Assembly: GCA_902797065.1 (NCBI GenBank)
Contig: CADBRK010000085.1
Span: forward strand, 1 to 33,991
Source: an uncultured Ruminococcus sp.
Lineage (GTDB): Bacteria; Bacillota; Clostridia; Oscillospirales; Acutalibacteraceae
Reading direction: 5' to 3'
DNA: 33,991 nt
Part shown: one piece after another, positions 4,489 through 28,865 of the stretch
Numbering within the stretch: the stretch's first letter is position 1
Layout of the letters: every line of letters starts with the position of its first letter
Program-made: the position numbers and the translations under genes
The notes under the pieces: generated by a model
Told to the model about the DNA's origin: nothing
Databases searched by the model: none
The model's input: the letters and a program-made list of their open reading frames with translations, nothing else

Positions 4489-4517
4489 TTGACAAAAGAT
4501 TTGCCTTGTGCTAAGAT
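4489..4517 (+). promoter_or_regulatory. Sigma-A-type promoter for the paralog array.
   Basis: TTGACA (4489-4494), a 17-nt spacer ending in TGc, then TAAGAT (4512-4517). It lies about 35 nt upstream of the ATG at 4552. Confidence 0.55.
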
Positions 4518-4551
4518 AATACTAAAAAACGGGAAATCGGAAGGTGTTTTT

Positions 4552-5175
4552 ATGGAAAAGATAAAGAAGTATTGTCTGCCGAGTAAGGCGGGCGGTATTA
4601 TTACAGGTGTGGTATTTTTGGCGGCGGCGGTTTTTATTCTCTGGGCTGAATTCGTTTCAGGTCACACTTTGGGCATGGGCAGGATAGGCGCATGTCTGTT
4701 GTCTTTGGTCTTGATTGTGATTGCGTTTATGATGTATTATGCCATATACGGCAGCGCTGCGTCGAAGTATAAGAAAAGGATAGCGTATTTCGGAAGCCTC
4801 GGCGTGGCAGGGGCATTGGTACCGGATTTCAACAGAGGTGTACGCCTGTTTGGAGGAAAGCTTGTTGCGGGTGAGAATTTCCTTTTCGGCAAAGGCGAGG
4901 GCATGATAGTCATGTATCGTGAGATTAACTCTCTGCGCAGGAATGAGCACAGAACCGATTACACCTCGGGCAATCTGCCGACATTCAGGTACAGCTTGAT
5001 TCTCACAGCCGGGGGTAAGGACTATACTCTCTGTAAACTCTCACGGGAAGACGTACTTTCTCCGGAGTGGTATCAGTTCAGCGCGTTTCTCTCGCTGAAA
5101 AACCCGGCTATTCGGGTGAACCAGATCATTTCTCAGACACACAGCACGATCGATGATTCGTCGGAAGATGATTGA
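4552..5175 (+). CDS. Paralog 1 of a 2-TM membrane protein family of unknown function (N-terminal K-K-[YF]-C-x-P-S motif, TM hairpin, about 140-aa cytoplasmic domain, acidic C-terminal tail).
   Basis: ATG 4552 has a GGAAGGTG RBS and aligns with the starts of the paralogs (MEKIKKYCLPS). It shares the motifs LV.G.NFLFG...GM.VMY.EI, NEHRTDYTSG, YTLC, EWYQF, LKNP and DDSSEDD. Confidence 0.8.
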   Translation: MEKIKKYCLPSKAGGIITGVVFLAAAVFILWAEFVSGHTLGMGRIGACLLSLVLIVIAFMMYYAIYGSAASKYKKRIAYFGSLGVAGALVPDFNRGVRLFGGKLVAGENFLFGKGEGMIVMYREINSLRRNEHRTDYTSGNLPTFRYSLILTAGGKDYTLCKLSREDVLSPEWYQFSAFLSLKNPAIRVNQIISQTHSTIDDSSEDD

Positions 5176-5193
5176 TCGAGGGGAGGTCTTTCT

Positions 5194-5823
5194 ATGAAAA
5201 AAGTAAAAAAGTTCTGCGTGCCGAGTGTTGTTCCTGCGGTGATCGTATCATGTTTGATAATTTTCGTCGGCGCAGCAGCGTGCCGGTTTGCAATTACTTC
5301 CAGAATCGCAAATATTTATTATAAATTGGGCGGCGTCGGCTTTTTAATCGCTATGCTTTTTGCGGCACGCTTTATGTTTAAAGAAATGTATCAATGCTAT
5401 GCGATTTTGTTCAAAAAACGGCTGGAGTATTTCAGAAAGATCGGTGTTATATCTCAGGTTGCGCCCGATTTTGAACAGGGAGTACGCATATTCGGCAAAA
5501 ACCTTGTCGTCGGGAAGAACTTCCTTTTCGGACGAGAAAACGGTATGGTCGTCATGTACAGCGAGATAGATGTTCTGTACAGGCATGAACATAAGACGGA
5601 CTATGAATCAGGCGCTCGACCTTTGTACAGCTTTTATGTCAAGTTCATGTCGCGCGGTGAGGAGTACACTTTGTGCAGCCTTGATCATCGTCAAGCAATT
5701 TCAGACGAGTGGGTTAAGTTATGCGAACTGGCTTCGCTCAAAAACCCAAATATCCGCATCAGACGGGATTTTCAGAAGTCCCGCAGCGTTAAAGACGATA
5801 CAGTCCCGATTGATGATGATTGA
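5194..5823 (+). CDS. Paralog 2 of the same 2-TM family.
   Basis: There is an 18-nt gap after paralog 1 and a GGGGAGG RBS. The 209-aa product shares the motifs listed for paralog 1. Confidence 0.85.
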   Translation: MKKVKKFCVPSVVPAVIVSCLIIFVGAAACRFAITSRIANIYYKLGGVGFLIAMLFAARFMFKEMYQCYAILFKKRLEYFRKIGVISQVAPDFEQGVRIFGKNLVVGKNFLFGRENGMVVMYSEIDVLYRHEHKTDYESGARPLYSFYVKFMSRGEEYTLCSLDHRQAISDEWVKLCELASLKNPNIRIRRDFQKSRSVKDDTVPIDDD

Positions 5824-5841
5824 TCGCAGGGAGGTATTCTT

Positions 5842-6468
5842 ATGAAAAAAGTAAGAAGATTCTGTATGCCGAGTGCCGTTCCGGCGGCGATAGCTTCGTC
5901 TCTTATTTTTGCGGTCGGTGCGGTTGTGTTCTTGTTTACAATGATTTCCGAAAACTCAAATATTTATATCAAACTGTTCGGCGGTGCTTTTTGTATCGGC
6001 ATGTTTTTTGCCGCGCGCGCTTTGTTTAAAGAGCTTTATCTTAACTATGCGGCTATGTTCAAAAAGCGGCTGGAGTATTTTAAACAGATCGGCGTTTTCC
6101 CGATGGTTGCGCCCGATTTTGAACAGGGGGTACGCTGGTTCGGCAAAAACTTAGTCGTCGGGAAGAACTTCCTTTTCGGACGAGAAAACGGTATGATCGT
6201 AATGTACGGCGAGATAGATCAGCTTTTCAGGAACGAACACCGAACTGATTACACATCGGGTGACAGCCCGTCTTTCGATTATTATCTCAAGATGGTTGCA
6301 AACGGGAAGGAGTATACCATTTGCAGCCTGAAAAAGCAGAATCTTAATTCAGATGAATGGTATCAGTTCTGCAATTTTCTCTCTATAAAAAATCCGAATG
6401 CTCATATAAGCCAGTATTTCCAGCAGACGCAGAGCCTTGTCGATGATTCTTCGTCAGGCGATGATTAA
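5842..6468 (+). CDS. Paralog 3 of the same 2-TM family.
   Basis: There is an 18-nt gap after paralog 2 with a near-identical junction (TGATTGATCg.agggagg). The product is 208 aa and shares long identical nucleotide tracts with paralog 2. Confidence 0.85.
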   Translation: MKKVRRFCMPSAVPAAIASSLIFAVGAVVFLFTMISENSNIYIKLFGGAFCIGMFFAARALFKELYLNYAAMFKKRLEYFKQIGVFPMVAPDFEQGVRWFGKNLVVGKNFLFGRENGMIVMYGEIDQLFRNEHRTDYTSGDSPSFDYYLKMVANGKEYTICSLKKQNLNSDEWYQFCNFLSIKNPNAHISQYFQQTQSLVDDSSSGDD

Positions 6469-6587
6469 ACTTTGCGGCCACGCGGCCGCAGGCAGATTCC
6501 GTCCGGGTGTAATGTAAACGAAAGACATTTCCGCATGGATGATTTTTATCAGACCATGATTAAATTTTTTTATTGGAGGAAAAAATA

Positions 6588-7204
6588 ATGTTCGGGATAA
6601 AGAGATATTGTCTGCCGTCAATCATACCGATGATCCTTGTTATGATGATAGGCATTCTGTTTGATACACTGCTTATGATCGGTATTATCAATACCGAGCC
6701 TGTATGGATCAAGTTAGTGACGCTGGTTTTTTTCTTGGGTATCCTTGCGGCTTTTGCAGTTATCGCATGGAGAATGTATATCAGGTATGCGTATTGCTGA
6801 GAAAGAGGCGTAAACACTACGCAAAAACGGAAATGACAGAGTTGATGAAAAGTGATTTCAAATCGGCAGAACACAGATTTAAAAAGAATTTAAAAACCGG
6901 CAAAAGCTTTATTTTCGGAAAATCAAACGGTAATCTTCTAAGATACAGCGATATAGACATACTGTACCGCAACTTGCTTGAAACAACATACACTTACAGC
7001 AACAGAGTAACCTATACATATTCTATCAAGGTCGTGTCAAGCAGAGATGAGTCCGAGCTGTGTATAATACCAAATGATATGGCAGAGTCGGACGAATGGT
7101 ACAAATTGTGTGACTTTCTCGCCGAAATTTGCCCGACTATAGAAGTCCGTCAGGAAATAGTCAGGACTTTCAAATTTGTTGATGATTCACCGAGCAAGGA
7201 TTGA
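6588..7204 (+). pseudogene. Paralog 4 of the 2-TM family, disrupted by a 1-nt frameshift near 6790-6800.
   Basis: ATG 6588 (RBS GGAGGA) encodes MFGIKRYCLPS plus two TM helices and stops at 6800. The homologous C-terminal domain (LLRKRRKHY...FIFGKSNG...SDEWYKLC...VDDSPSKD) continues in another frame to 7204. Confidence 0.7.
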
Positions 7205-10038: not shown

Positions 10039-11568
10039 ATGAAAAGAATACTGTCTGCATTTAAGCGATTTTATAACCCGCCGAAGCACCCCGACCGCAA
10101 AACAAAACCTATCCCGATAAGCGATGATCTTCGGACGAATATTGAAACGCTGAAAGAATTATTCGACAATTCAAGCGACCTTACGATAAAAGAGATCGCT
10201 CTGAAAGCCGGAGATCGTGAGACGAGAATTGCAGTCGTCACGATGGAAGGGCTTGTCGATAAAGAAACTCTCGCCGCAAGCATAACGAACCCCATTTCAA
10301 ATTATATCGGGATAACCGCCGATCATGATGATATTACAACTCTGCTTGAAAACGACGTTATCACGTGCAGCGACCATACCGAAGTAACCGACCTTTCGGA
10401 GCTGTCAAAGCTCGTTATGTCCGGCTTTGCGGCAGTGCTGCCCGACGGAGCAAATAAAGCCGTTGCAGTCGGCGTGCAGGGGTTTGCGTACAGGGGAGTT
10501 GAAGAACCCGATACGGAATCGGTGCAGCGAGGTTCGAGAGAGGGTTTCGTCGAACCGCTGCGGATAAACATCTCGATGATACGCCGCAGGCTAAAAACGC
10601 CCATGCTGAAATTCGAGACAATGACTCTGGGATATACGTCAAACACCGACATATGTATTTGTTATCTGAGGAATGCCGTATCCGACGAGATACTCGACAC
10701 GCTCAGAACACGATTGAAGAAAGTCGATCTGAACACGCTGTTTGCGTCGGGTTATCTGCTGTCTTATATCGACGACGACGGCGACAATACCATGTTCCCG
10801 ACGGTTGGTGTGACCGAACGACCCGACACCGCCTGCGCCAAACTCTGTGAGGGGCGTATAGTTATAATTGTAGACGGCACTCCGAGCGTATTGTATGTGC
10901 CGCATCTTATGACCGAAAATTTCCACACCTTTGACGATTACACAAACAGACCGTTCTTCTCTACAATAGCCCGTCTGCTTAAATATCTGTCGTTTTTCAC
11001 GGCGATACTTCTTCCGGCGGTGTATGTTGCGTTTGCGTCGTACAATCCCGAATTCTTCCCGGCGCAGCTGCTGACGAAGGTTTCCGGGGCGGTATCGCAC
11101 ACGCCGTTTTCGATCTTCTCCGAGGTGCTGCTGTTTACATTCATATACGAGATCATGCGTGAGGCGGGGCTGCGGCTTCCGAAAACTCTCGGGCATGCGG
11201 TGAGTATTATCGGCGGTCTTGTCATCGGCGACACTGCAGTTAATTCGGGGTTTATCGGTGCGCCTACTCTTATGATCGTTGCGCTGACGGTGATATGCTC
11301 GTATATCATACCCGATCTGTACGCGTCCGTTGCGATACTCAGAGTGTTGTTTATAATTGCGGCTGGTGCGTTCGGCATATGGGGCGTTGTGATTCTGCTG
11401 TGTATGCTGCTGACGTACCTGTCGTCGAAATCAAGCTTCGGAATACCGTTTTTTGCGCCTGTATCGCCGTTCGGTCTGTTCGGTATGCGGGATACTGTCG
11501 TTCGGGCAAGCTGGAGTACGCTGTCAAGACGTAATATGAAGGTTCAGGAAATTGGTATTCAGGAATAA
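10039..11568 (+). CDS. Spore germinant receptor A subunit (GerAA/GerKA family).
   Basis: The 509-aa product has a soluble N-terminal domain plus a C-terminal multi-TM region typical of GerA-family A subunits. AGGAGG RBS is present. Confidence 0.88.
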   Translation: MKRILSAFKRFYNPPKHPDRKTKPIPISDDLRTNIETLKELFDNSSDLTIKEIALKAGDRETRIAVVTMEGLVDKETLAASITNPISNYIGITADHDDITTLLENDVITCSDHTEVTDLSELSKLVMSGFAAVLPDGANKAVAVGVQGFAYRGVEEPDTESVQRGSREGFVEPLRINISMIRRRLKTPMLKFETMTLGYTSNTDICICYLRNAVSDEILDTLRTRLKKVDLNTLFASGYLLSYIDDDGDNTMFPTVGVTERPDTACAKLCEGRIVIIVDGTPSVLYVPHLMTENFHTFDDYTNRPFFSTIARLLKYLSFFTAILLPAVYVAFASYNPEFFPAQLLTKVSGAVSHTPFSIFSEVLLFTFIYEIMREAGLRLPKTLGHAVSIIGGLVIGDTAVNSGFIGAPTLMIVALTVICSYIIPDLYASVAILRVLFIIAAGAFGIWGVVILLCMLLTYLSSKSSFGIPFFAPVSPFGLFGMRDTVVRASWSTLSRRNMKVQEIGIQE

Positions 11569-11581
11569 GGAGATCAGATAT

Positions 11582-13681
11582 ATGCTTCACAAAAACAATC
11601 CGACTTCTCTCGAATGGGTATGTATCCTGCTTTCGGGTTCGCTGTTCACTGCGCTGTCGTACTCTGTGTTTACCGCAGGGAGGATCAATATTCTGATATA
11701 CGCCGTATCGCAGGCTGCGGTTTTTATTTTTATGTTCTTGATTACGCTGCCGCTCAAACGCTATTTCGGGAAATTCGATAGCCCGATAGTATTACAGGCT
11801 AAATCGGGGAGTGCCGTTTTAAATGCGGTGTTGTCCGTTGTCTATTCGCTCTATTTTATGTACGCCGCTGCCGTGACGATAATTATCGGCGCAATATTCA
11901 TAAAAACGTATATCGACAATAATCTTCCCGTTACTCTGTTCGCCGTTCTGGTAGCCGTATGCGGTTATCTGTCTGCAAAGAGGGGAATAAACGGTATCGC
12001 AGGAAGTACGGTCATACTCACAATGCTGTCGGGCGCAGCCGTGCTGTTTGTTTTTATTTCGCTGATATTTCGTGCGGATATGCTGAACTTCTCGTATGTC
12101 TATTCGCTTGATTTTTCCGATATAAGCCGATCGGCGGTGTATTCGCTGTCGGGTGCGGTGCTGCTGCCGTGTGTGCTTATGTTCGGGAGAACCGCAGAAG
12201 AAAAACCGCACAAGGGCGTCAATATCTGGATAACACTGTCGTTTGCTTTGTGTATTTCGATAGCCGTAATGACATATGCCGTATCGGGCGAGTATTCAAA
12301 TTATACAAAGTTCCCGTTTTATACATCTGCGCAGCTGCTTGAGGCAGGTTCGTTCAAAAGGCTTGACGTGCTTTTCCTTATGCTGTGGGTGATAGGTATA
12401 TATATAAATATATCGGTGTTGCTTTCGTCGCTCAAAGAGGTTATGTATATGACGTATGAATCGGTAACGGCAAAAAGAGTATTTGTTGCAGGGGTGATAA
12501 CAGTGACGGCAGTTTCGGCAGTATCGTTCAAATACGATGAATTGAGAGATATTCTGCTCGATCACTTTTTTGTTACGCTGCTGATAATTCTGACAGTGTT
12601 TATACTGCCCGGGCTGTTCCTTGTCTTTAACAGACCACGCAGGAAAAAGCGTACTGCTGCGGCTGTGCTGGCACTATTGACTGTTCTTTCGTCGTTTGCG
12701 CTGTCGGGCTGCGGAAAAACCGAGATACAGGACAGACTTATCGTCAAGGGCATAGGCGTAGATAAAACTACAGACGGGTATGACGTCACGGTACAGTATA
12801 CAGATACATCTTCGGGCGAAGATAAGCAGGAAAACAGATGTTTTGCCGTGTCGGGCGCGAGTATAGCGGACGCTGTGGGGAAGATAAAGAACAGTATCGG
12901 TCTTGAACCGTTTTTCGGGCAGCTCAGCGCGGTAACGGTGGGTTACGATTCGGCGGAGGATATGGATATTGCCGCCGACTATTTCATGAGAAGATCGGAT
13001 GTGCGCCCTTCCGTTAAGCTGTATCTGAGCCGGACGACCGCCGGGGATATTCTGAGATTCGAGAAGGACGGCTCAGTCATGCCGATAGATACGCTGACGT
13101 CTATATCTCCCGAATTCTCGGTCAAAAGCAACGATTACACATTGTTAAGCTATATAAACGCACGTATCGACCCATGCAGGACTCCTGCCGTAACGGTGCT
13201 GAAATGCGCCGATACCATACGATTGGCGACCGTGGCGGTGTTCGGCTGTGAGGGCGTATATATGCTTGATGACGATAGCTTCACCGCATATAAGCTTCTG
13301 CACGGCAAGCTTGATGAAAGCGTTCTTTCGGCGCAAGGCGTTTCATGCCGTGTGGAGAAGTGCAGAAATCATATTTCCGTCGATTATAACGGCGGCGGGA
13401 TCGCTTTCTACACCGTCAGTGATCTGAATATCGTTATCTCGGAAAACGCCGGTCATCTGCACGATGATGAAGTCTGCGGCATTATTGAACGGTACCTCGA
13501 ACGTCTCGTTAATGATTCTGCGGAAACAATACTGAAAAATAATCGTGACGACGTCTTTGAGTTGGGGCGTCATTTGGTGAATTTTAACAGGAATAGCGAT
13601 AATGCGTATGAGGTGTACAGAGAATTATTATCCGACTGCGAAGTTAATGTTAACGTCAAATGCAAAATTGTTAATAATTAG
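11582..13681 (+). CDS. Fused germinant receptor B subunit (APC-like permease, about 10 TM) and C subunit (GerAC lipoprotein domain) in a single ORF.
   Basis: ATG 11582 has an AAGGAG RBS. The first roughly 350 aa are polytopic. The sequence then reads RRKKRTAAAVLALLTVLSSFALSGC (Cys codon 12710-12712), a lipoprotein signal with lipobox, followed by a GerAC-like IVKGIGVDK...YDVTVQ domain. Confidence 0.8.
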   Translation: MLHKNNPTSLEWVCILLSGSLFTALSYSVFTAGRINILIYAVSQAAVFIFMFLITLPLKRYFGKFDSPIVLQAKSGSAVLNAVLSVVYSLYFMYAAAVTIIIGAIFIKTYIDNNLPVTLFAVLVAVCGYLSAKRGINGIAGSTVILTMLSGAAVLFVFISLIFRADMLNFSYVYSLDFSDISRSAVYSLSGAVLLPCVLMFGRTAEEKPHKGVNIWITLSFALCISIAVMTYAVSGEYSNYTKFPFYTSAQLLEAGSFKRLDVLFLMLWVIGIYINISVLLSSLKEVMYMTYESVTAKRVFVAGVITVTAVSAVSFKYDELRDILLDHFFVTLLIILTVFILPGLFLVFNRPRRKKRTAAAVLALLTVLSSFALSGCGKTEIQDRLIVKGIGVDKTTDGYDVTVQYTDTSSGEDKQENRCFAVSGASIADAVGKIKNSIGLEPFFGQLSAVTVGYDSAEDMDIAADYFMRRSDVRPSVKLYLSRTTAGDILRFEKDGSVMPIDTLTSISPEFSVKSNDYTLLSYINARIDPCRTPAVTVLKCADTIRLATVAVFGCEGVYMLDDDSFTAYKLLHGKLDESVLSAQGVSCRVEKCRNHISVDYNGGGIAFYTVSDLNIVISENAGHLHDDEVCGIIERYLERLVNDSAETILKNNRDDVFELGRHLVNFNRNSDNAYEVYRELLSDCEVNVNVKCKIVNN

Positions 13682-19350: not shown

Positions 19351-22032
19351 TTATTTATCTGCAAGTCTGAGAACATCTTCGTATACTCTCTTACAGCTGT
19401 CCTCGTCAAAGAACGGATAGAATTCTTCGATCCTTTTGATGTACTTATCGCTGTTTTTGCAGTCGTTCTCGATGTATTTGCACACGGCATTTACCGTGCT
19501 TTCGAGATCGCGGCATACAGGACCGAATCCGTTGTCGTCGTAGCTGAAATAACCCTCGGAATAAGAGTGACCTTTGAAGAACGCTTCTTTATCGAACTGC
19601 GAGTATACAACAGGCTTTTTCAGATAGCCGAAGTCAAAGAATACGCTGGAATAGTCGGTGACGAGAAGCGCGCTTTCGGCAAACTGAGTCTGATAATCAA
19701 CATATCCGTGGTTTACCTTGAAAACATCGTTCTCGGTAAAGTCAACGTACTGCTCCGTGAACAGCGGATGCAGGCAGAATAGACCTTCATAGCCGTTCTT
19801 CTTCATGCATTCAACAAGCTTGGGGTTGTTGATAAGTCCGTTATAGAATTTAAAGAAATCGCTTTCCTTAAACTTATCGTAGTACACGCTGGTATCTGTT
19901 TTGGGATCAACGCACTTGTAGAGAGATTTTCTCCATGTCGGAATGATAAGTATCTTCTTCTTGACATTCTTGCTCATTCTTGTGAGATTATCAAATCTCG
20001 GGAATCCCGTAAGCCTTACCTCTTCTTCGGTATAGAAGTATTCCCCGTCAATAATCGATCTGTACTCGGGCTTACCTGCCGTAACGAAAAGCTTTATGTT
20101 CTTGTTTGTCTTGTTGAGCCAGCCTGAGATGTCGTCTTTTGTTATTCCGTGCTGAAGGAACACAAAGTTGAAGTTGAACAGATCGGACATACAGAGTCTG
20201 TCGCCGCCGTAGGGGTTAAGAACGTATTCGCTTGCCTGAGACGAAATGACGTTTTCGCTCTGGAGAGTCATAAGTCTGAACTTTGCGGTACCGAAATCTA
20301 TGATCTTGCCGATTTTTGACATTCTCTCATAGTCCTCGCTGTCCTTCTGAAGAACAAAGTACGGCTTGATGCCCCTGTGCTTTATACTCTGAACATATTT
20401 GAAGAAGTGCTCGCCGTTATCGCCTGCTTTGTTGGGTCTGTCAGAGATAAGCCATACGTGCTTGTTGAACGGACGCATCAGGAAGTAGAGCAGACGGTGT
20501 TTTATCAGATAGCCTCGCTTTATTCTCCTGAGATGAGACCAGTACTGAAGCTCGTACTTCAAATGCCTTCTCTTTTTATAAGGAATAACTTTAAGCGTTT
20601 TACCGACTCTTTTCAGGATATAATCGCCCGTGCAGTAGTATCCGAAATCTTTGCCGAGCGTCGGGATATGGGCAAATTTACCCATTTCAACATATATCCT
20701 GGTAATGTAGGTATCCTTATATTTCAGGAAGAATTCAATGCTGTCTTCTCTGCCTTTTTTTACGGGTATCGCAAACTTAAAGCCCTTGCCGTCAAAAGCT
20801 TTAAGCCCCATGATCGGCGTGTCGTACTTTTCGGTGAGGTACAGCTCGGGTGTGTACTCTTTTCCGTTTACCGTCGCATAGAAAGAATAATCCGCACGAT
20901 CAAGGAAGAGATTGTCTTTTCCTTCGATGTACAGCACGTCGTCCTGAATTTCCATAAAAGTGAAAATGAGCAGCGATCTCACTTCGAGAAGATTCATCAC
21001 GATAATATTATTGAAGAACAGCTTTCCGTGATCGTATTCAAGTTCTTTGGTAATATCTCTCCGGTATTTAATGCCGAGAGCATATACCTTCGCTCCGACA
21101 CCCATATTCTTCTGAGTGAGAATGATCCTGTCGTCAATTTCGAGAAGTAGACTGTTAATGATGCTTTTGTACTGCTCCAATTTCTCGTTGGTAAGCATAC
21201 CTTTCAGGTCTTTGCCGAGTCTCCAACGCAGATCATACATTACGATGTACTGAATGAACTCGAGAACACGGCCGTAACGCTTTTTGGACTGTTCGATAAG
21301 ATCCTTATGGAAATACTTCGGCGAATCGAAATAATAGCTGTCGGATTTCAGCTCGTTCTGGAGAGCCGAGCTTTCGTCGCTTCTTTTTCTGTAAAGGTGA
21401 ACAGCCTCGCGGATAACGCCGAGTTTGCACTTGTCGAGAATGATCGAGTTGATAAACTGAGAGTCCTCGCCGTATTTAAGATTAGTCGAGAATCTGATGT
21501 CACCGATAGCCGAGGCTTTTATAAATGCGCCTGTAACGTCCATCTGGATCATTTCGTAGTAGGTGAGGAGATCAACGACTCTGGTGCTGCTGAATTTATA
21601 GTCAAGGTAGTGATAGCCCGTTGTTGCATCAAAAAACTGTTTTCTTGCACCTACAACGTCTATCTGATCCTGGTTTTCTTCAAAGAAATCATATACGAGC
21701 TTAAACGCGTCCTTCTTCCAGCAGTCGTCGGAGTCAAGGAAGTTTACGTATTTTCCCTCGATGTATTTTATGCCGTTATTCCTTGCGGAGCTTACGCCGC
21801 CGTTTTCCTGAAGAACATATACGATATTATCGGGGTACTTGCTCTGATATTTCTTGCATATCTCTTCGCTGTTGTCGGGGCTTCCGTCGTTGACAAATAT
21901 TATCTGAATATTCTCCTTGAATCCGATTGTCTGAGCGATTACAGAATCTACGGTTTCTTTCAGATATTTCTCTACATTGTAAACCGGTATAACTACCGAA
22001 AACTTGAATTTGTAATCGTTTTTGTTTGACAT
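19351..22032 (-). CDS. Bifunctional family-2 glycosyltransferase (N-terminal) and CDP-glycerol glycerophosphotransferase (TagF-like, C-terminal).
   Basis: N-terminus: FSVVIPVYNVEKYL...VNDGSPDNS (GT2). C-terminus: FLQHGI and IIPTWR motifs of the TagF/TagB family. The product is 893 aa. Confidence 0.88.
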   Translation of the reverse strand: MSNKNDYKFKFSVVIPVYNVEKYLKETVDSVIAQTIGFKENIQIIFVNDGSPDNSEEICKKYQSKYPDNIVYVLQENGGVSSARNNGIKYIEGKYVNFLDSDDCWKKDAFKLVYDFFEENQDQIDVVGARKQFFDATTGYHYLDYKFSSTRVVDLLTYYEMIQMDVTGAFIKASAIGDIRFSTNLKYGEDSQFINSIILDKCKLGVIREAVHLYRKRSDESSALQNELKSDSYYFDSPKYFHKDLIEQSKKRYGRVLEFIQYIVMYDLRWRLGKDLKGMLTNEKLEQYKSIINSLLLEIDDRIILTQKNMGVGAKVYALGIKYRRDITKELEYDHGKLFFNNIIVMNLLEVRSLLIFTFMEIQDDVLYIEGKDNLFLDRADYSFYATVNGKEYTPELYLTEKYDTPIMGLKAFDGKGFKFAIPVKKGREDSIEFFLKYKDTYITRIYVEMGKFAHIPTLGKDFGYYCTGDYILKRVGKTLKVIPYKKRRHLKYELQYWSHLRRIKRGYLIKHRLLYFLMRPFNKHVWLISDRPNKAGDNGEHFFKYVQSIKHRGIKPYFVLQKDSEDYERMSKIGKIIDFGTAKFRLMTLQSENVISSQASEYVLNPYGGDRLCMSDLFNFNFVFLQHGITKDDISGWLNKTNKNIKLFVTAGKPEYRSIIDGEYFYTEEEVRLTGFPRFDNLTRMSKNVKKKILIIPTWRKSLYKCVDPKTDTSVYYDKFKESDFFKFYNGLINNPKLVECMKKNGYEGLFCLHPLFTEQYVDFTENDVFKVNHGYVDYQTQFAESALLVTDYSSVFFDFGYLKKPVVYSQFDKEAFFKGHSYSEGYFSYDDNGFGPVCRDLESTVNAVCKYIENDCKNSDKYIKRIEEFYPFFDEDSCKRVYEDVLRLADK

Positions 22033-22047
22033 GCGATACTCCTTTTA

Positions 22048-23058
22048 TTACTTTTCAAAGCTTGATTTATCGGGAAGAAGTTTTGTAAACGAATCTATTA
22101 CCTGCTGTTTTTGTTTTTCAAAGTCGGATGTGTTTATCGTATCATTAACGCAGATCTGCTTATATCTGCCTTTCTCTATTGATCTGAGCAGCTCGTCAAA
22201 GAGGGAATCTGTGATGTGGAAACATCTTCCGCCCTTTGTGCTTTTCGGGATCGGAATTCCTTCCGCAAGCTGCCAGTATTTTATAAGCCACTGATTGCAG
22301 TTGTTCTTTGTGCGGAACTTATCGCTGCATGTTTCGTCAAGAACATCTCCTTCAATATCCCAGACCGTTTCGTAGGTACTTTTCAAAAAGTTGCTCGGAA
22401 GATGATTGTAGTACATTCCCGGGAACCACGGCCACATACTCAGGGCGATGGTCTTGATATTTCTCTTTATACCGTTTGCGGGGGTGTACCATTTGAAGAA
22501 ATGCTTTTTCATGACCTGCGTGCGTACAAAATGTGTGTTGATAAGCTCGATGTCGTTGCCGTTGAAGAAACCTGCGCTCTTTTTCCTGAAAAAGATGCAG
22601 TCTAAAGCGTATGTATCGCGGGGACGTCCGTCCTTGAAAAAGTCTTCGGGCTTAACGGGTGCGGTTATGAACATATCGTCGTTGAAATACACAAACTGCT
22701 CGGCAAGCCCTTCGATCCTGTGGAGATTCAGCTCAATGGTATTTGCGTTGAAGGTAGGCAGATATTTCTCGGGTATATAGTCTTTGTGATTAACAACATT
22801 AAGCTTCGGGTTGTCCGTATTCAGCCACGGGGGAAGATGTCCCCATGTGACGAAGTGGATCTTGTTTACCCACGGCGCAAACTTCTCGACACCTCTGAAC
22901 CAGAACTGGAGATTATCCCAGCTTCTGTATCGTATCTCGGTGCTGTCACCCGTTTTATTCGATTTGTCGTATAAATTCTTTTCTTTCTGCCACTCGGGAT
23001 CGTTTCCGTCGACCCAGATAATAACAAAATCAATTTTATCCAAGATCTTCACCACCAT
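22048..23058 (-). CDS. Stealth-family capsular polysaccharide (hexose-1-phosphate) phosphotransferase.
   Basis: Stealth CR1 is IDFVIIWVDGNDPEW. CR2 is EIRYRS...APWVNKIHFVTWGHLPPWLN...VVNHKDY...LPTFN. CR3 is FVYFNDDMF. Confidence 0.85.
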   Translation of the reverse strand: MVVKILDKIDFVIIWVDGNDPEWQKEKNLYDKSNKTGDSTEIRYRSWDNLQFWFRGVEKFAPWVNKIHFVTWGHLPPWLNTDNPKLNVVNHKDYIPEKYLPTFNANTIELNLHRIEGLAEQFVYFNDDMFITAPVKPEDFFKDGRPRDTYALDCIFFRKKSAGFFNGNDIELINTHFVRTQVMKKHFFKWYTPANGIKRNIKTIALSMWPWFPGMYYNHLPSNFLKSTYETVWDIEGDVLDETCSDKFRTKNNCNQWLIKYWQLAEGIPIPKSTKGGRCFHITDSLFDELLRSIEKGRYKQICVNDTINTSDFEKQKQQVIDSFTKLLPDKSSFEK

Positions 23059-23154
23059 TGTTAAAAACCGGACGGTATGAAAACGACTGCTTTAATTGAA
23101 GAAAAACCGCATCACACATAACCGCCCGTTTTAAATCTATTGCGTACTTTGTTC

Positions 23155-23183
23155 ATTATATCATATTTGATGATTGTGTACAA
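23155..23183 (-). promoter_or_regulatory. Sigma-A-type promoter on the minus strand for the Stealth / GT2-TagF genes.
   Basis: On the minus strand: TTGTAC (23183-23178), a 17-nt spacer ending in TGa, then TATAAT (23160-23155). Confidence 0.5.
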
Positions 23184-23285
23184 TTAGCAAATACTACAAG
23201 AAATTTTAGAAATATTGCTCAATTATCATTTTTTCCTTATATGATTCGACAAAATCATGATGAAAATACTGTGCGGAAACACAAA

Positions 23286-24359
23286 TTATACAGCTTTTTT
23301 TCGACATGCGCCGAGCTTATTTTTGTACAGCGAACAGAGCTTTTCTATGGGTATATGTATGACTGCGGCGGCAGGTATCGAAATAACAAGCACCGACAGC
23401 GTAAATACAGGTTCATCTGTATTCAGAATGCTTATTTTTTGGACGATCTCTATTATCAGACCGTGGAGCAGGTACAGTTCAAGCGAGAATACGCCGATCT
23501 TGTTCATCAGAGTGTTTCCGGAAAAATCAACCTTCATGCATATAAGAGGTATAAACACCGCCATCGCAAACGAAAAAAAGAGCGTGATAAAATAGTTTAT
23601 ACCGCTGCCCCTTTTCGTGGATGCCTTCGCCGCATATAAAGCCGCTATCAGCGCAAGGTTTATAATCAGCGGCAGTGTGTAATGCTTTTTGAGAGCTTTC
23701 AGGATTTTCTTTTCACAGACAGACAGTACGACGCCCGCCCAGAAGCAGGGAGCTGTGTTGTACCACCACATGCCGTAGTGCAATCTCCGGCACATCAGCA
23801 TATATATAATAACTCCGGTCAGATTGCCGATCATAAACAGTACGGTCTTATTCTTTGTGAAAAACAGCTTCGCATTTATGTAGTACACGATATACAGATA
23901 GATGATCGCAAGGATATACCACGAGTTCTTTACGATCGGATCGCCGTTATAAAGCGAGATCAGCGCTTTTTGTATCGTGCAGCCGTTTGCGAAATGCTCG
24001 TACAGATAATATATCACAAAGAAAATGACATAAGGAATAACGATCACACCGAGACGCTTGGGGATAAACCCTTTCAGGTATGCTTCACGCTTCGTTTTGA
24101 GCTGCACGGTGAGTCCGTACCCCGATATGATAAAAAAGCCCGCTGTGCCGAGAACACCGAAATGGTACAGCCTGTCAAATAAAAACCCGCCTTCGGTTAT
24201 GTTTGAAATATGGTGAAGAACAACTACAACGGCAAATATTCCCCTTAATGCCCTGCACTGTCCGGGCGAAAAATAGTCGTCTGCGAATTGCTTGCCCGGC
24301 TTTTTTATTTTGAGGCGGTACAATACAGTCATTATAAATAACGCTATGAATATATCCAT
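23286..24359 (-). CDS. Acyltransferase family 3 (membrane O-acyltransferase, OatA/WecH-like).
   Basis: The 357-aa product has about 10 TM segments and the LRGIFAVVVVLHHI motif typical of the acyltransferase_3 family. Confidence 0.85.
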   Translation of the reverse strand: MDIFIALFIMTVLYRLKIKKPGKQFADDYFSPGQCRALRGIFAVVVVLHHISNITEGGFLFDRLYHFGVLGTAGFFIISGYGLTVQLKTKREAYLKGFIPKRLGVIVIPYVIFFVIYYLYEHFANGCTIQKALISLYNGDPIVKNSWYILAIIYLYIVYYINAKLFFTKNKTVLFMIGNLTGVIIYMLMCRRLHYGMWWYNTAPCFWAGVVLSVCEKKILKALKKHYTLPLIINLALIAALYAAKASTKRGSGINYFITLFFSFAMAVFIPLICMKVDFSGNTLMNKIGVFSLELYLLHGLIIEIVQKISILNTDEPVFTLSVLVISIPAAAVIHIPIEKLCSLYKNKLGACRKKAV

Positions 24360-24683: not shown

Positions 24684-25499
24684 ATGACGCAGGATCAGAG
24701 GAGAGTTTATCTGATAAAAGAATTGCTTGCGGAAAAGAAAAACGCAAAGATAGTGAGGATTCCCACAAGCGCCGTTCAGCAAAAAAACCTGCTCAGAACG
24801 CTTATGAACGAGAGAGAGCCTGCTCCGATAAGCGATGAGTTTTTGAAAATACAGGACGAATACCTGAAATACGCCATAGCGCAGAAGGGTATCACGCATA
24901 TAAACGATCTTGAACCGATCGAAAAGGAGATGTATCTCTGGCAGGGCGATATTACCACGCTTGACTGCGACGCCGTCGTCAATGCCGCCAACTCGGAGAT
25001 GCTCGGCTGCTTTCAGCCGCTTCATAACTGCATAGATAACTGCATACATACATATTCGGGCGTACAGCTCAGAAATTACTGCGACGAGATGATGAAAGAG
25101 CAGGGTCACGAAGAACCGTCGGGACAGGCAAAAATTACGCCTGCATTCAATCTTCCCGCAAAGTACATAATACATACGGTGGGTCCGAGAATAAACGGCT
25201 TTGTGCGCGAGAAGCATAAAAAAACGCTCGAATCGTGCTATAACAAGTGCCTTGAGACAGCAGAGAAAAACGGCTGCCTCAGCATAGCGTTCTGCTGTAT
25301 CTCTACGGGTGTGTTCGGGTTTCCTCAGTATGACGCCGCAAAGATAGCCTTAAAAACAGTGTCGTCATATAAAAAGAAGCATAAAAGCAGTATCAAGGTC
25401 ATATTCAATGTGTTCAAGTACGAAGACCTGATGATATACGAAGAATTATTTGAAGAAAAGAAATTGCTGGAGCATATTGTCGAGCTTGCCGAACAGTAA
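24684..25499 (+). CDS. Macrodomain protein-ADP-ribose hydrolase (Firmicute roughly 270-aa type with an N-terminal helical extension).
   Basis: LWQGDITTLDCDAVVNAANS.MLGCF and ISTGVFGFP macro-domain motifs are present. Confidence 0.85.
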   Translation: MTQDQRRVYLIKELLAEKKNAKIVRIPTSAVQQKNLLRTLMNEREPAPISDEFLKIQDEYLKYAIAQKGITHINDLEPIEKEMYLWQGDITTLDCDAVVNAANSEMLGCFQPLHNCIDNCIHTYSGVQLRNYCDEMMKEQGHEEPSGQAKITPAFNLPAKYIIHTVGPRINGFVREKHKKTLESCYNKCLETAEKNGCLSIAFCCISTGVFGFPQYDAAKIALKTVSSYKKKHKSSIKVIFNVFKYEDLMIYEELFEEKKLLEHIVELAEQ

Positions 25500-25544
25500 T
25501 ATCGTTACTTACAAAACTGTAATCATTAATGACGTTATTAGTGG

Positions 25545-25574
25545 TTGTAATCAATGCCCGGTATGTGATATAAT
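25545..25574 (+). promoter_or_regulatory. Extended -10 sigma-A-type promoter for the PASTA pseudokinase gene.
   Basis: TTGTAA (25545-25550), an 18-nt spacer, then TGaTATAAT (25566-25574). Confidence 0.55.
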
Positions 25575-25642
25575 TCATTAGAATAGAGTAATTTTGTTTT
25601 TTGGAAAAGAATTATCATTATAAAGTTTTATGGAGTGATTAG

Positions 25643-27328
25643 ATGTCAAAGATTTGTTACGGATGCTTCAGACCACTCGATGACGAAAGTTCAAAGTGTC
25701 CGCGCTGCGGTTTTGACGCAGCCACAAAACAGAATATGCCGTTCCTGCCGCTCGGCGCAGAGCTTCAGAAGGGCAGATATACTATTGGCAAAAAGATTCT
25801 CAGCAGCAACGAGAGTACAAGATATATCGCATACGACAACAGTATGGACGCCGTTGTAAATATCAGAGAGTTTCTTCCCAACGGATTGTGCGCAAGGAAG
25901 AAGGAGAGCAACAAGATCGTTCTTAATGCCGAGAAAGCCGCTGCGTACAAGCGTTTGCTCAGCAAGTATCTCGATTATAACAGAACGCTTGCAAGGCTGA
26001 AGGATTGTTCTGCTGTTATCAGGGTGTCCGATATTTTTGTCGAGAACAACACAGCGTACGTTGTAGAGGAGAGAGAGTCGCTTCTTCCCTTTGCGGATTA
26101 TATCAAAAAGTGCGGCGATCATATAAGCTGGGAGACCGCAAGATCGCTGTTTATGCCGCTTCTCTCCACTCTTGAGAAAATGCACAAAAACGGCATTTCT
26201 CACTACGGAGTAGGCCCCGGAAATCTCAAGATCAATTCGGAAGGACAGTTAAAGCTGCAGAATTTCTCGATCTCCGATATGAGAAAAAAGGGCACCGATC
26301 TCAAACCTATGCTTATTTCGGGCTGTTCCGCACCCGAACAGTATGACGATTATTCCGTGCTTGACGAAAGCACAGAGATATACGGCTTCACCGCAACGCT
26401 TTTCTATGCGCTTACGGGCAGCGTTCCCGAAGATGTGGAAAAGCGCCGCAAGGATAACAGACTGCTTATCAGCACGGCTATCAACAAGAATCTGCCGTCT
26501 TATGTGCGTCAGGCTTTGTCGAGCGGTTTACAGTTCGATCAGGAGAAAAGACTTGCCACATTTGCGGATCTCAGGGCGGAGCTTTCTGCCGCGCCTACCG
26601 CAAAGGCGATCAAAGAAGAGATGTCTCAGCCCGATATGGACGACGATGACGACGATATGCCCTCAAAAAAGAGGAAGAAAAAGTCCAGCAGCAGTATCTA
26701 CGGCGTTATCTCCTGCATAGTTTCTCTTGTAATATTCGTTATTATCGGTACGCTGTGGCTGCAGGAAAATCCGTTCGCAAAAATGTTTGAACCCGAGAAC
26801 GTAAGCTCCGACAGCGAAGTCGAGGCAACGGGCGAGGTGGTTACCGTGCCCAACCTTGTAGGAGTAAAATACGAGATCGCAGTCGAAGAAGCAGGCAAGA
26901 CTTCCGACTATCAGCTGCTTAAAGCTGTCGAGGAGGAGTTCAGCGACGACGTTCCCGAAGGATATATCGCGTCGCAGTTCCCCGAGGCTTATTCCGACGA
27001 GATACAGGGTTATTCACTCTATATCACGGTAAGCAAGGGCGCAAAGCAGAGAGAATTGCCGAAGATCGAGGGCAAAACTGTAGATCAGGTAGCGCAGCTC
27101 CTCGGAGACGAAAGCTTTGTTACAACTCAGATATACGAGTACAGCGAAACGATTAAAAAAGGTCTTGTTATAGGTTATGACGCGCACGTGCCGGGCGATA
27201 AGCTTGAGTACGGTTCGTCTTTGGTAATAAAAGTAAGTAAGGGCGCAGAACCCAAGGCAACGGATACCGAGAGAAGAACGTCGGATTCGGACGCCGTGAG
27301 CAGCGCCGACGAAAACCCCGAAGAGTAA
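25643..27328 (+). CDS. Membrane protein with an N-terminal zinc ribbon, a degenerate Hanks-type kinase-like domain (predicted pseudokinase), one TM helix and two extracellular PASTA domains.
   Basis: CYGC...CPRC zinc ribbon. The kinase fold is recognisable (APE and LTG..P retained) but the catalytic motifs are replaced; see findings. The TM helix is IYGVISCIVSLVIFVIIGTLWL. PASTA repeats read VPNLVG...ITVSKG and LPKIEGKTVDQV...VIKVSKG. Confidence 0.8.
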   Translation: MSKICYGCFRPLDDESSKCPRCGFDAATKQNMPFLPLGAELQKGRYTIGKKILSSNESTRYIAYDNSMDAVVNIREFLPNGLCARKKESNKIVLNAEKAAAYKRLLSKYLDYNRTLARLKDCSAVIRVSDIFVENNTAYVVEERESLLPFADYIKKCGDHISWETARSLFMPLLSTLEKMHKNGISHYGVGPGNLKINSEGQLKLQNFSISDMRKKGTDLKPMLISGCSAPEQYDDYSVLDESTEIYGFTATLFYALTGSVPEDVEKRRKDNRLLISTAINKNLPSYVRQALSSGLQFDQEKRLATFADLRAELSAAPTAKAIKEEMSQPDMDDDDDDMPSKKRKKKSSSSIYGVISCIVSLVIFVIIGTLWLQENPFAKMFEPENVSSDSEVEATGEVVTVPNLVGVKYEIAVEEAGKTSDYQLLKAVEEEFSDDVPEGYIASQFPEAYSDEIQGYSLYITVSKGAKQRELPKIEGKTVDQVAQLLGDESFVTTQIYEYSETIKKGLVIGYDAHVPGDKLEYGSSLVIKVSKGAEPKATDTERRTSDSDAVSSADENPEE

Positions 27329-27394: not shown

Positions 27395-28096
27395 CTATTT
27401 CATCATTCTTTTTTCGGTACTCTGTATCAGCGTGAACAGTGATTCCGACATTGCGGAGTATTGTTCCTCTATTGTCTCCGGGGACATCTCAACTTGCTTC
27501 GTGCGGTCAAGGCTGCGGTATTCGGAGATCGGCAGACCGTGAGTTATGCTTTCGGTATTGCTTTCGGTTATTGACTGCATCGCATGTACACGCCCTTTAT
27601 AAGTATGTTCGGGGACAGAGAAGATACCCTTCGGGTTTTTCGGGTTAGACGAATATATCGTCCTGAACATGGTGTATACCGAACCGAAGAGATATGACGA
27701 GCATTCGTGTATAAGCCCGATGTTATCAAGGCGGTCGATCTGATCGAACAGTATCGTGAGCGAGTGGAACACGGTACGCTTGTTGAAATTCACAATGGGG
27801 CTTATTTTGCTGCTGCCCGTGTATGTGTCCTCTGTTATGAGATCGTCTTCGTTATAATTGTTTGCGCCTGCGTTTGCAGTACGGCTGACGCTCCTGCCAA
27901 GCAGATAGTCGCATGTCACGCCGTAATAATCGGCAGCTTTTACAACAAAATCAAGACTGCATTCACGTATGCCCTTCTCATAGTGAGACAGCAGCGGCTG
28001 AGATATACCTAAGTCGGACGCCGCACGCTTCTGGCTGAGCCCCTTTTCTTCACGGAGAAGCGTTATTATTCTCGGAAAATCCTTGTTCAATCCCAA
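27395..28096 (-). CDS. XRE-family helix-turn-helix transcriptional regulator with a C-terminal domain of about 160 aa of unknown function.
   Basis: LREEKGLSQKRAASDLGISQPLLSHYEKG HTH motif. TTG start. Confidence 0.8.
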   Translation of the reverse strand: MGLNKDFPRIITLLREEKGLSQKRAASDLGISQPLLSHYEKGIRECSLDFVVKAADYYGVTCDYLLGRSVSRTANAGANNYNEDDLITEDTYTGSSKISPIVNFNKRTVFHSLTILFDQIDRLDNIGLIHECSSYLFGSVYTMFRTIYSSNPKNPKGIFSVPEHTYKGRVHAMQSITESNTESITHGLPISEYRSLDRTKQVEMSPETIEEQYSAMSESLFTLIQSTEKRMMK

Positions 28097-28172
28097 ACAC
28101 CCTTTCTATATTTAAATATACTATCAGTATAATTGAATTATTACAATTTGTAAAGAGAAAAGAGAAATAAAT

Positions 28173-28865
28173 ATGAAATCATACCGGATACATTTTATCA
28201 GGCACGGCGCGTGCGAAGAATCACGCAGGGGAGTGTACGTCGGCACAAAAGACGTTCCACTCAGCGAAGAGGGTATCCGTGAACTCAAAGAGCTTGACGA
28301 AGCTTTTGACTATCCCGGAACGCCCGTTGTCTTTACAAGCCCGCTGAAAAGATGTACGCAGACCTGCAATATACTCTATCCCGCTATTCCGCCGATAGTT
28401 ATAAACGAGCTGTGCGAGTGCAGCTTCGGCGAGTGGGAGGGCAGGACTGCAGATAGTCTCAGCGCAAACGAGGACTTCAAAAAATGGCTTGCGGGCGACA
28501 CATCTGTCAAACCGCCGAAGGGCGAGAGCGGAGCGGAGTTTACACGCAGAGTATGCAATATTTTTCAGAAGATCGTTGACGGTCTGATCTCAACGGGTAA
28601 TACCAATGCCGTAATAGTTACTCACGGCGGCGTTATCATGACGCTGCTGTCCGTGTACGGTCTGCCGCAGGCAAAGCCGTTCGACTGGGTGTGCGACGAC
28701 GGCTGCGGATATTCGATGAGGATCACGCCGTCTCTCTGGATGCGTGACAGAGTCGGAGAAGTGTACGCGAAGCTGCCGTACCCCAAACGCGATGACGAGT
28801 ACGAAGACGACAGCTTCAAAAGAGAATTTTTTGGCGACGACACGGTATTATTTGATGATGTCTGA
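28173..28865 (+). CDS. Histidine phosphatase superfamily protein (phosphoglycerate mutase / CobC-like).
   Basis: N-terminal RHG motif (IHFIRHGA) and the downstream VTHGGVI histidine. Confidence 0.8.
   Translation: MKSYRIHFIRHGACEESRRGVYVGTKDVPLSEEGIRELKELDEAFDYPGTPVVFTSPLKRCTQTCNILYPAIPPIVINELCECSFGEWEGRTADSLSANEDFKKWLAGDTSVKPPKGESGAEFTRRVCNIFQKIVDGLISTGNTNAVIVTHGGVIMTLLSVYGLPQAKPFDWVCDDGCGYSMRITPSLWMRDRVGEVYAKLPYPKRDDEYEDDSFKREFFGDDTVLFDDV

Follow-up and report, generated by a model that had tools for sequence, protein, structure and literature searches.

The window analysed here is a stretch of 33,991 nucleotides of contig CADBRK010000085.1, from an uncultured Ruminococcus sp. of the Acutalibacteraceae. 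The subject of this report is one complete open reading frame (ORF) in it, coding for a protein that combines an N-terminal zinc ribbon, a kinase-like domain with degraded catalytic motifs, a single transmembrane (TM) helix and two PASTA repeats. The features of the locus are collected in Table 1. The ATG of the gene is preceded at a distance of 7 nt by the ribosome-binding site GGAG. The promoter-like element listed upstream of it is a consensus match alone, and promoter-like sites in this region are in no excess over shuffled sequence. The adjacent genes code for a protein-ADP-ribose hydrolase, a helix-turn-helix (HTH) regulator and a protein of the histidine-phosphatase superfamily.

Table 1. 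Features of the pseudokinase gene, its predicted product and its neighbours, with positions in the window.
Feature	Position	Strand	Basis
Macro-domain protein-ADP-ribose hydrolase, directly upstream of the pseudokinase gene	24684-25499	+	NF003163, 356 bits vs 272
Promoter-like TTGTAA-N18-TATAAT with TG extension, sigma-70-like	25545-25574	+	Consensus scan; ~70 nt before start codon
Complete ORF, 561 aa: zinc ribbon, pseudokinase, TM helix, 2x PASTA	25643-27328	+	Uninterrupted
N-terminal zinc ribbon C5-x2-C8...C19-P-x-C22-G-F, residues 5-24	25655-25714	+	CYGC 5-8, CPRCGF 19-24
Linker PFLPLG, residues 33-38, joining ribbon to first N-lobe strand	25739-25756	+	P33, F34, L35 and G38 invariant in 20-sequence alignment
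Hanks-fold pseudokinase domain, residues ~40-315	25760-26587	+	Pfam, Foldseek, dN/dS
Degenerate glycine-rich loop GKKILSSNEST, residues 49-59, where GxGxxG is expected	25787-25819	+	
β3 strand VVNIREFLP, residues 71-79; ATP-anchoring Lys replaced by Arg75, [KR]-E-[FY]-x-P signature kept	25853-25879	+	
Catalytic loop SHYGVGPGN, residues 186-194; HRD replaced by HYG, catalytic Asp by Gly189; N194 kept	26198-26224	+	
NFS in place of DFG, residues 207-209; metal-binding Asp replaced by Asn207	26261-26269	+	
SAPEQY (APE motif), residues 229-234, retained; Glu232 pairs with subdomain XI Arg303	26327-26344	+	
Juxtamembrane acidic-then-basic low-complexity segment DMDDDDDDMPSKKRKKKSSSS, residues 331-351	26633-26695	+	pLDDT <50
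Single TM helix, residues 352-373, then invariant W-x3-N-P-F	26696-26761	+	Kyte-Doolittle; model helix 351-374
PASTA repeat 1, residues ~400-466	26840-27040	+	Pfam best stretch 400-465; aligns to S. aureus Stk1 PASTA structure 3py9
PASTA repeat 2, residues ~467-535	27041-27247	+	Second Pfam stretch; 3py9 alignment
XRE-family HTH regulator (~230 aa) with helical C-terminal domain, convergent with the pseudokinase gene	27395-28096	-	Pfam HTH_3
Protein of the histidine-phosphatase superfamily (branch 1); gene divergent from that of the HTH regulator	28173-28865	+	Pfam His_Phos_1, 128.8 bits

The initial annotation, made from the sequence, had read the protein as having the layout of a PASTA kinase, with a Hanks domain, one TM helix and PASTA repeats, and this layout stands. 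Pfam places a Pkinase domain (PF00069) at residues 108-305 with 48.1 bits against a cutoff of 31.7, and two PASTA domains (PF03793) with 51.6 bits against a cutoff of 23.2. The score above the gathering threshold, together with the bilobal fold of the structural model, puts the protein within the kinase fold.

The correspondence of active-site residues was taken from phmmer alignments to two solved kinases, PpkA (PDB code 5hnv) and S. aureus Stk1 (PDB code 4eqm). All the motifs quoted in the initial annotation are found in place, and its claim that the canonical catalytic elements are replaced is borne out by both alignments. The GxGxxG loop aligns with SSNEST and its glycines are gone. The positions of the β3 Lys, the αC Glu, the catalytic Asp and the metal-binding Asp are taken by Arg75, Tyr112, Gly189 and Asn207, respectively. 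The catalytic-loop Asn194, the APE Glu232, the αF Asp and the subdomain XI Arg303 (invariant in A1) are kept, in agreement with the earlier statement that structural motifs are retained. It is important to note that no alignment to solved kinases offers a substitute set of intact Lys/Asp/Asp residues at alternative positions. A pseudokinase is defined operationally by the absence of the VAIK Lys, the HRD Asp or the DFG Asp, and here all three are lost. As far as can be judged from the sequence, the canonical phosphotransfer machinery (Lys/Glu/Asp/Asp) is unusable in this protein.

The N-terminal ribbon matches the Pfam double zinc ribbon family DZR marginally (E=0.15). Its four Cys residues are invariant in A1, A2 and A3 and in 128-136 of the 138 degraded family representatives described below, the remainder being truncated at the N-terminus. 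Since the four residues are invariant wherever the N-terminus is present, the ribbon is far beyond chance despite the weak score. The full-length AlphaFold2 model, built with the family alignment, has a confident kinase fold, the TM helix and two PASTA domains, with a mean pLDDT of 75.8. The model of the cytoplasmic part alone (residues 1-332) has a pTM of 0.80, with pLDDT values of 77-85 for the ribbon and 85-95 for the linker; the activation segment (residues 221-236) is disordered in it. Because this model is compact and the ribbon and linker are within the pLDDT range 77-95, the ribbon and the N-lobe are predicted to form one body.

The comparison of the cytoplasmic model with the PDB by Foldseek gave the type VI secretion system (T6SS) kinase PpkA (5hnv) as the first match (E 5e-17, target-normalised TM-score 0.79), followed by PknB, PknA and Stk1. 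The E-values of the matches to PpkA, PknB and Stk1 range from 1e-13 to 1e-17. The best matches align about 285-300 columns, corresponding to the kinase domain only, and none of the Foldseek matches in the PDB spans the arrangement of ribbon plus kinase. PknG is absent from the top 50 matches, and the protein does not belong with the PknG-like rubredoxin-kinases.

The highest-scoring Kyte-Doolittle 19-mers start at residues 351-355, and W372, N376 and P377 around the end of the TM helix are invariant in an alignment of 20 sequences spanning 41-84% identity. The KKRKKK cluster before the helix lies on the cytoplasmic side, and the topology is therefore predicted to be N-in and PASTA-out. The cluster forms part of the segment DMDDDDDDMPSKKRKKKSSSS, of which the composition is kept within the clade of the window but the sequence is not. 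The two PASTA repeats are marked by VPNLVG...ITVSKG and LPKIEG...VIKVSKG.

Three independent contigs from rumen metagenomes encode the identical protein in the same gene order. Among 5.8 billion proteins searched, relatives were found at 65-84% identity, together with a large group from Ruminococcus at about 43%; those that have a name go by 'PASTA domain-containing protein' and nothing more specific. In the ortholog scan, with one genome per GTDB species, the full-length orthologues were the best 80 of 266 candidate relatives and come from rumen or gut Ruminococcus and Acutalibacteraceae. Among the carriers are R. bromii ATCC 27255, Ruminococcus sp. JE7B6 (complete genome), Ruminococcus sp. 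zg-924 and Eubacterium sp. OM08-24. Not one of the 20 aligned sequences retains a glycine loop, the β3 Lys, the HRD Asp or the DFG Asp. Invariant or nearly so in the same alignment are the four ribbon Cys residues, PFLPxG, APEQY, the αF segment, R303 and the WxxxNPF motif following the TM helix. Against the closest orthologues, the pseudokinase domain has a dN/dS ratio of about 0.04-0.1 and the PASTA repeats have one of 0.02-0.05; these values are approximate because dS is near saturation, with dN far below dS throughout.

The gene is tiled at low depth by contigs from four bovine gut (rumen) metatranscriptomes and is probably transcribed. One of these contigs (X6, positions 25109-26021) spans the 3' end of the hydrolase gene and the 5' end of the pseudokinase gene, so that read-through from the upstream gene is possible. 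Three pure-culture runs of R. bromii (X29-X31) are almost certainly DNA, because their depth is flat and their contigs reach 60 kb.

The loss of all catalytic motifs and the generic name given by NCBI could be taken as signs of a decaying kinase gene or an annotation artefact. This is hardly tenable. An intact ORF is present in 80 species or more and in database entries that number in the thousands, the dN/dS ratio is far below 1, non-catalytic motifs are invariant, and RNA contigs cover the gene. Conservation, dN/dS and these contigs rule out a pseudogene or a chance ORF. The pattern of substitution indicates that purifying selection is maintaining a functional protein.

The wider family was explored with a profile of the cytoplasmic module, which was searched against 1.84 billion representatives at 50% identity. 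It matched 7486 proteins at E<=1e-30, and nearly all of the best 150 begin to align near position 3, so that the ribbon is included. The counts that follow refer to the 149 of these best 150 representatives that were aligned to the profile; this is a top-scoring sample and not a census. Eleven of the 149 look active, with GQGGFG, VAIKE[YF]xP, HRDISPDN and DFG, and all eleven have the αC Glu. The other 138 are degraded. None of them has the HRD Asp (Gly in 105, Ala in 26) or the αC Glu. The β3 position is Arg in 94, Lys in 17 and another residue in 27, and the DFG Asp position is Gly in 88, Asp in 27 and Asn in 10. Their glycine-rich loop is cut down to N-G-E-G (consensus G-x4-N-G-E-G), compared with GQGGFG in the active relatives. 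His187 and the ribbon Cys residues are invariant in the degraded set, and the APE Glu (E232) is present in 138 of 138. Two PASTA repeats were found in all eight distant degraded members tested, and none in the active ribbon-kinases tested, one of which has choline-binding repeats instead.

A second profile search, started from 14 distant members, gave 2121 proteins at E<=1e-20. The named ones are all called 'PASTA domain-containing protein' and come from Clostridia, Clostridiales or Acutalibacteraceae, mostly as metagenome-assembled genomes. The architecture is thus conserved across a large family in Clostridia of gut and rumen.

The persistence of some active-site elements raises the question of an atypical enzyme, with an unusual mode of ATP binding or another nucleotide-dependent reaction, as in WNK, CASK, SelO or the DYD family. 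His187, Asn194 (Asn or Thr in the family) and the N-G-E-G remnant of the glycine-rich loop persist, and the DFG Asp is kept in the 27 members counted above. The β3 Arg is also found in the DYD pseudokinases, which are predicted ATP binders (PMC12599244). However, about 95% of members have Gly or Ala in place of the catalytic base and none has Asp there, the αC Glu is missing in all, and an acidic residue occupies the position of the glycine-loop Phe. The protein of the window further lacks the glycines of this loop (SSNEST) and has Asn at DFG. In addition, the former catalytic positions differ between clades (R/K/H/S/T/Y/C at β3, G/D/N/E at DFG), and no alternative conserved catalytic constellation is visible. 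Non-canonical catalysis is accordingly considered improbable.

The same profile bears on the origin of the module. Against the active ribbon-kinases it scores 150-200 bits per module over positions ~1-320, ribbon included, while against the PrkC proteins of the same genomes it scores about 75 bits and matches the core only (positions 87-265). The R. bromii pseudokinase and the PrkC of that genome have a BLASTP identity of 27% in the kinase core and 32% in the PASTA part. The Cys4 ribbon, the [KR]-E-[FY]-x-P signature and the end-to-end alignment place the family in an unnamed lineage of zinc-ribbon Hanks kinases of Clostridia. The initial annotation had described a PrkC-like kinase that gained a ribbon. 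This part does not hold, since the profile fits the active ribbon-kinases from end to end and PrkC in the core only, so that the ribbon is ancestral to a distinct lineage. The same applies to one detail of the catalytic loop. The HRDxKPxN motif had been described as replaced with loss of both Asp and Lys; the Asp is indeed lost (Gly189), and Asn194 is retained, but the absence of the Lys is a trait of the lineage, because the active relatives read HRDISPDN, with Ser at this position. A recent degenerate duplicate of an adjacent PrkC is ruled out by the profile scores and the identity values, which point to a different kinase lineage. By these comparisons the module in common with PrkC is the PASTA ectodomain.

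The active relatives have an architecture of their own. Several of them (P0121, P0144, P0145, P0168 and others) often contain two to four tandem modules of zinc ribbon plus kinase in one polypeptide. P0121 has four such modules in 1291 residues, and P0156 ends in choline-binding repeats. This tandem multi-kinase architecture seems to be undescribed.

The initial annotation had also raised the possibility of a true PrkC encoded elsewhere, with which the protein could act. Flanking ORFs were clustered at 84 loci, each with one ribbon-bearing pseudokinase. At 36 of the 84 a second, canonical kinase without a ribbon is found about 1.6-1.9 kb upstream. The gene order there is def-fmt-(Zn peptidase)-rsmB-rlmN-PP2C-kinase-rsgA-216 aa gene-pseudokinase. 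NCBIfam identifies the products as a Stp1-type PP2C (257 bits vs 230), a Stk1/PrkC-type PASTA kinase (552.9 vs 450), RsgA and thiamine diphosphokinase. The Stk1/PrkC/PknB equivalog model NF033483, which the R. bromii PrkC passes with the score just given, is not reached by the pseudokinase of the window (118.7 bits) or by its R. bromii orthologue (131.4 bits). Of the 59 loci whose upstream sequence extends over 4.5 kb or more, 35 show prkC adjacency, with PrkC about 1.7 kb upstream, the carriers being R. bromii ATCC 27255, Ruminococcus sp. JE7B6, Eubacterium sp. OM08-24 and 32 more species. At these loci the pseudokinase is an extra gene downstream of the prkC operon and does not stand in the place of PrkC. 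Its position just 3' of the PP2C-PrkC-RsgA-thiamine diphosphokinase operon means that a true PrkC coexists with it in those relatives. The presence of a true PrkC is therefore borne out for the relatives, and the clade of the window shows no such adjacency.

The balance tilts, if only slightly, towards a non-catalytic PASTA receptor pseudokinase that acts as a partner of the PrkC/PrpC module, as allosteric regulator, scaffold or phospho-acceptor. In PrkC, PknB and StkP, lipid II or muropeptides are the ligands of the PASTA repeats, which direct the kinase to sites of wall synthesis, and dimerisation regulates the kinase domains. This behaviour, the coexistence with PrkC, the operon-proximal placement in 36 species and the precedent of C. 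difficile CD2148 (see below) are the basis of the partner reading. Outside the cell, the two PASTA repeats would bind a peptidoglycan-derived ligand (lipid II or a muropeptide), and this binding, by analogy with PrkC, PknB and StkP, would bring the protein to where the wall is synthesised. Inside, the Hanks domain, capped by a ribbon that the model predicts to pack on the N-lobe and devoid of canonical phosphotransfer, preserves the kinase scaffold, above all the C-lobe, the APE-Arg anchor and the αF helix, and the intact C-lobe would be a docking platform. It would dock onto the kinase domain of PrkC, onto PrkC/PrpC substrates, or both. Docked as an allosteric partner, scaffold or phospho-acceptor, it could tune PrkC signalling on wall growth, division or spore germination. 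From these comparisons we infer ligand binding by the PASTA repeats and an interaction with PrkC, and also what the ribbon does and in which direction the regulation runs.

A more specific form of this proposal is possible but doubtful. The protein may be the first bacterial receptor pseudokinase to pair with a receptor kinase, forming a heterodimer with PrkC inside the membrane, outside it, or both, and allosterically gating peptidoglycan sensing. This resembles the pairing of HER3 with EGFR-family kinases and of the plant protein BIR2 with BAK1. If true, such a receptor would be at work in gut and rumen Clostridia by the thousands, among them Ruminococcus bromii, a keystone degrader of starch.

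Several observations weigh against a partnership with PrkC. The adjacency is confined to the clade at about 43% identity (35 of 47 loci), with 0 of 12 in the clade of the window itself, and there is no prkC within the window. The six distant lineages sampled have no prkC adjacency either; their contexts are a glycogen operon, BacA-YebC, alaS, GdpP and others. An adjacency limited to one clade may reflect a single ancestral arrangement and not repeated selection. Between the pseudokinase gene and thiN lie about 240-290 bp, so that co-transcription with the operon cannot be assumed. The pseudokinase is no paralogue of PrkC (27% identity), and heterodimerisation through a PknB-type interface cannot be assumed for this reason. 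In addition, metatranscriptome contigs, from which transcription is judged probable, can carry DNA.

In the window the PP2C pairing of the rsmB-rlmN-prpC-prkC-rsgA operon is not found, and the neighbours are the ADP-ribose hydrolase, the XRE HTH regulator and the His_Phos_1 protein. The last is nearest to CobC, yet under its cutoff (116 vs 162.9). The HTH/His_Phos_1 pair lies 3' of the pseudokinase gene at 45 of 68 loci and at 19 of 19 in the clade of the window (the window included), the His_Phos_1 gene always accompanying the HTH gene. The pair also follows the pseudokinase in the distant P0133 lineage and is found 7 kb away in the P0324 lineage. The divergent pair is linked to the pseudokinase across differing contexts, for example at 27395-28865 in the window, 8690-10198 in L089 and 704-2099 in L084. 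Its association with the pseudokinase gene is more persistent than the adjacency of prkC. However, all carriers are related Clostridia, so that residual synteny may account for part of both associations. In the HTH protein the HTH is highly conserved and the C-terminal domain is conserved; the search for solved structures matched the XRE HTH alone and gave none for the C-terminal domain.

This context could suggest a sensor independent of PrkC, in which the module signals elsewhere, for instance by sequestering or releasing the downstream XRE regulator according to the status of the wall, with or without the His_Phos_1 protein. The persistence of the pair, including its presence in the P0133 lineage, and the conserved C-terminal domain of the HTH protein, to which no function is assigned, are in its favour. 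Nevertheless, the pseudokinase and HTH genes are convergent and not co-oriented, while the HTH gene is divergently paired with the phosphatase gene, which suggests that the phosphatase gene is what the HTH protein regulates. R. bromii and four of the six distant lineages do not have the pair, residual synteny among related Clostridia is sufficient to explain it, and there is no domain logic between an XRE repressor and a kinase fold. We regard this sensor as unlikely.

A role of the ectodomain alone is judged slightly less likely still. The PASTA repeats could compete with PrkC or with penicillin-binding proteins (PBPs) for lipid II or muropeptides, or dimerise with the PASTA part of PrkC, the cytoplasmic domain being a folded anchor. 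The PASTA repeats are under the strongest constraint and are the sole part resembling PrkC, as given above by dN/dS and identity, and overexpression of the PASTA domain of PknB alone is reported to perturb mycobacterial growth (PMC4632501). A mere anchor would not be expected, though, to be under the strong purifying selection seen for pseudokinase and ribbon, or to have dozens of invariant surface and core residues across members that are 26-41% identical.

Other parts of the window contain several gene groups, and Rfam and tRNA scans found no RNA genes in it. Four tandem paralogous ORFs of 228, 209, 208 and 166 residues are located at 4489-7204 on the forward strand. A hydrophobic region at the N-terminus is common to the three longer ones; all four have a conserved C-terminal domain of the pattern G+NF[LI]FG..NG..[VL].Y.[ED]ID.L.RN...T.Y...DEWY and, at the end, a short acidic Ser/Asp-rich tail. 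None of the four has a Pfam match, and they look like an uncharacterised family of small membrane proteins expanded in tandem. A spore germinant receptor locus is found at 10039-13681 (forward strand), with GerA (509 residues) followed by an ORF of 709 residues that fuses a GerAB-type Spore_permease with the N- and C-terminal domains of GerAC, normally two separate proteins. Just upstream of the pseudokinase, on the opposite strand, is a wall-glycopolymer cluster (19351-24359) with an 893-residue fusion of GT2 and CDP-glycerol glycerophosphotransferase, a Stealth-family protein (CR1, CR2, CR4) and an Acyl_transf_3 membrane acyltransferase. The segment 30600-33892 (forward strand) codes for a response-regulator-like protein (receiver match of 19.9 bits, under the cutoff), a HisKA/HATPase histidine kinase, a VTC-domain protein and a 230-residue ORF, and may be a polyphosphate-related two-component unit.

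PASTA kinases are master regulators of wall synthesis, division, β-lactam tolerance and muropeptide-triggered germination in Gram-positive bacteria, and how they are tuned is debated. A widespread, strongly conserved PASTA receptor with a dead kinase, encoded next to prkC in many species, would add a new regulatory layer to this pathway and, as a natural experiment, would set ligand sensing apart from catalysis. The cultured carriers R. bromii ATCC 27255, Ruminococcus sp. JE7B6 and Eubacterium sp. OM08-24 make the family testable. The name 'PASTA domain-containing protein' hides it in automatic annotation, and the sequences themselves are not new, since they are already in public databases under this generic name. 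What appears to be undescribed is a large PASTA-linked family of ribbon-capped pseudokinases, its origin in a lineage other than that of PrkC, and, in R. bromii and related species, its position close to the prkC operon.

The 2025 Atlas of bacterial STKs (serine/threonine kinases) and an accompanying review list seven pseudokinase families: ActPs1, ActPs2, ActPs3, GLW, CP1, DYD and DLHK. ActPs1-3 are actinobacterial, GLW is proteobacterial with GLW replacing HRD, and CP1 is cytosolic with COG3899. DYD replaces DFG with HRD kept, and DLHK keeps the HRD Asp. Compared by these published descriptions, a membrane-bound protein from Clostridia with HYG, NFS and PASTA repeats fits none of the seven. 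The sole PASTA-linked family described there is KAPD, which is canonical, and no zinc ribbon is mentioned in the Atlas or the review. No paper on the architecture of PASTA, ribbon and pseudokinase was found in full-text searches of the literature; the PASTA and zinc-ribbon mentions in a heliorhodopsin preprint are unrelated. The defence and lanthipeptide kinases MADS6, LanL and PglW were also considered, and their NCBIfam scores are far under the cutoffs, corresponding to the generic kinase fold only. The present family would be the eighth conserved bacterial pseudokinase family, the first linked to PASTA and the first dominated by Clostridia.

The PASTA kinases PrkC, PknB, StkP, IreK and Stk1 have in common with the protein of the window the N-in topology, the Hanks fold, the single TM helix and the PASTA repeats outside. 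The PASTA part resembles that of Stk1 (3py9) and, in relatives, that of the PrkC of the same genome, and a prpC-prkC operon is near in many relatives. Unlike these kinases, the protein has no catalytic Lys, neither of the two catalytic Asp residues, no glycine loop and no αC Glu. It has an N-terminal ribbon, two PASTA repeats compared with three or four, and a kinase fold of a different lineage. With the zinc-ribbon kinases of Clostridia (P0144, P0156, P0121) it shares CxxC...CxxC, [KR]-E-[FY]-x-P, a loop of the type H-x-x-I-S-P-x-N, and A-P-x-E-Q-Y. Those proteins differ in keeping GQGGFG, VAIK, HRD and DFG, are presumably active, and have no PASTA repeats; they often contain two to four modules or other ectodomains.

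PpkA (5hnv) is the nearest solved fold, being first by both sequence and structure, and aligns from residue 27, so that the ribbon is not covered; it signals in type VI secretion. PknG has a Cys4 rubredoxin-like module N-terminal to the Hanks domain and packing on it, and is an active, soluble actinobacterial kinase with TPR. The likeness of a Cys4 module before a Hanks domain is an analogy only. Degraded membrane-bound Hanks domains serve as docking modules in MviN/MurJ of M. tuberculosis (ActPs3) and in EssB/YukC of T7SSb (a type VII secretion system). The pseudokinase domain of MviN is phosphorylated by PknB, recruits FhaA and regulates peptidoglycan synthesis. EssB/YukC scaffolds the secretion machine (PMC12599244). 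Both differ from the present family in lineage, taxa and partner domains (a flippase and a T7SS component) and have neither PASTA repeats nor a ribbon.

The best functional analogue for a partner of PrkC, likened by its published description, is C. difficile CD2148, which has no PASTA domains (PMC9674922). It is a membrane-anchored, septum-enriched and catalytically doubtful second Hanks kinase, possibly a pseudokinase, that lacks the catalytic-loop Asp and Asn and does not autophosphorylate (PMC9674922). CD2148 is phosphorylated only by PrkC, and it modulates the PrkC-dependent transfer of phosphate to CwlA as well as cell separation (PMC9674922).

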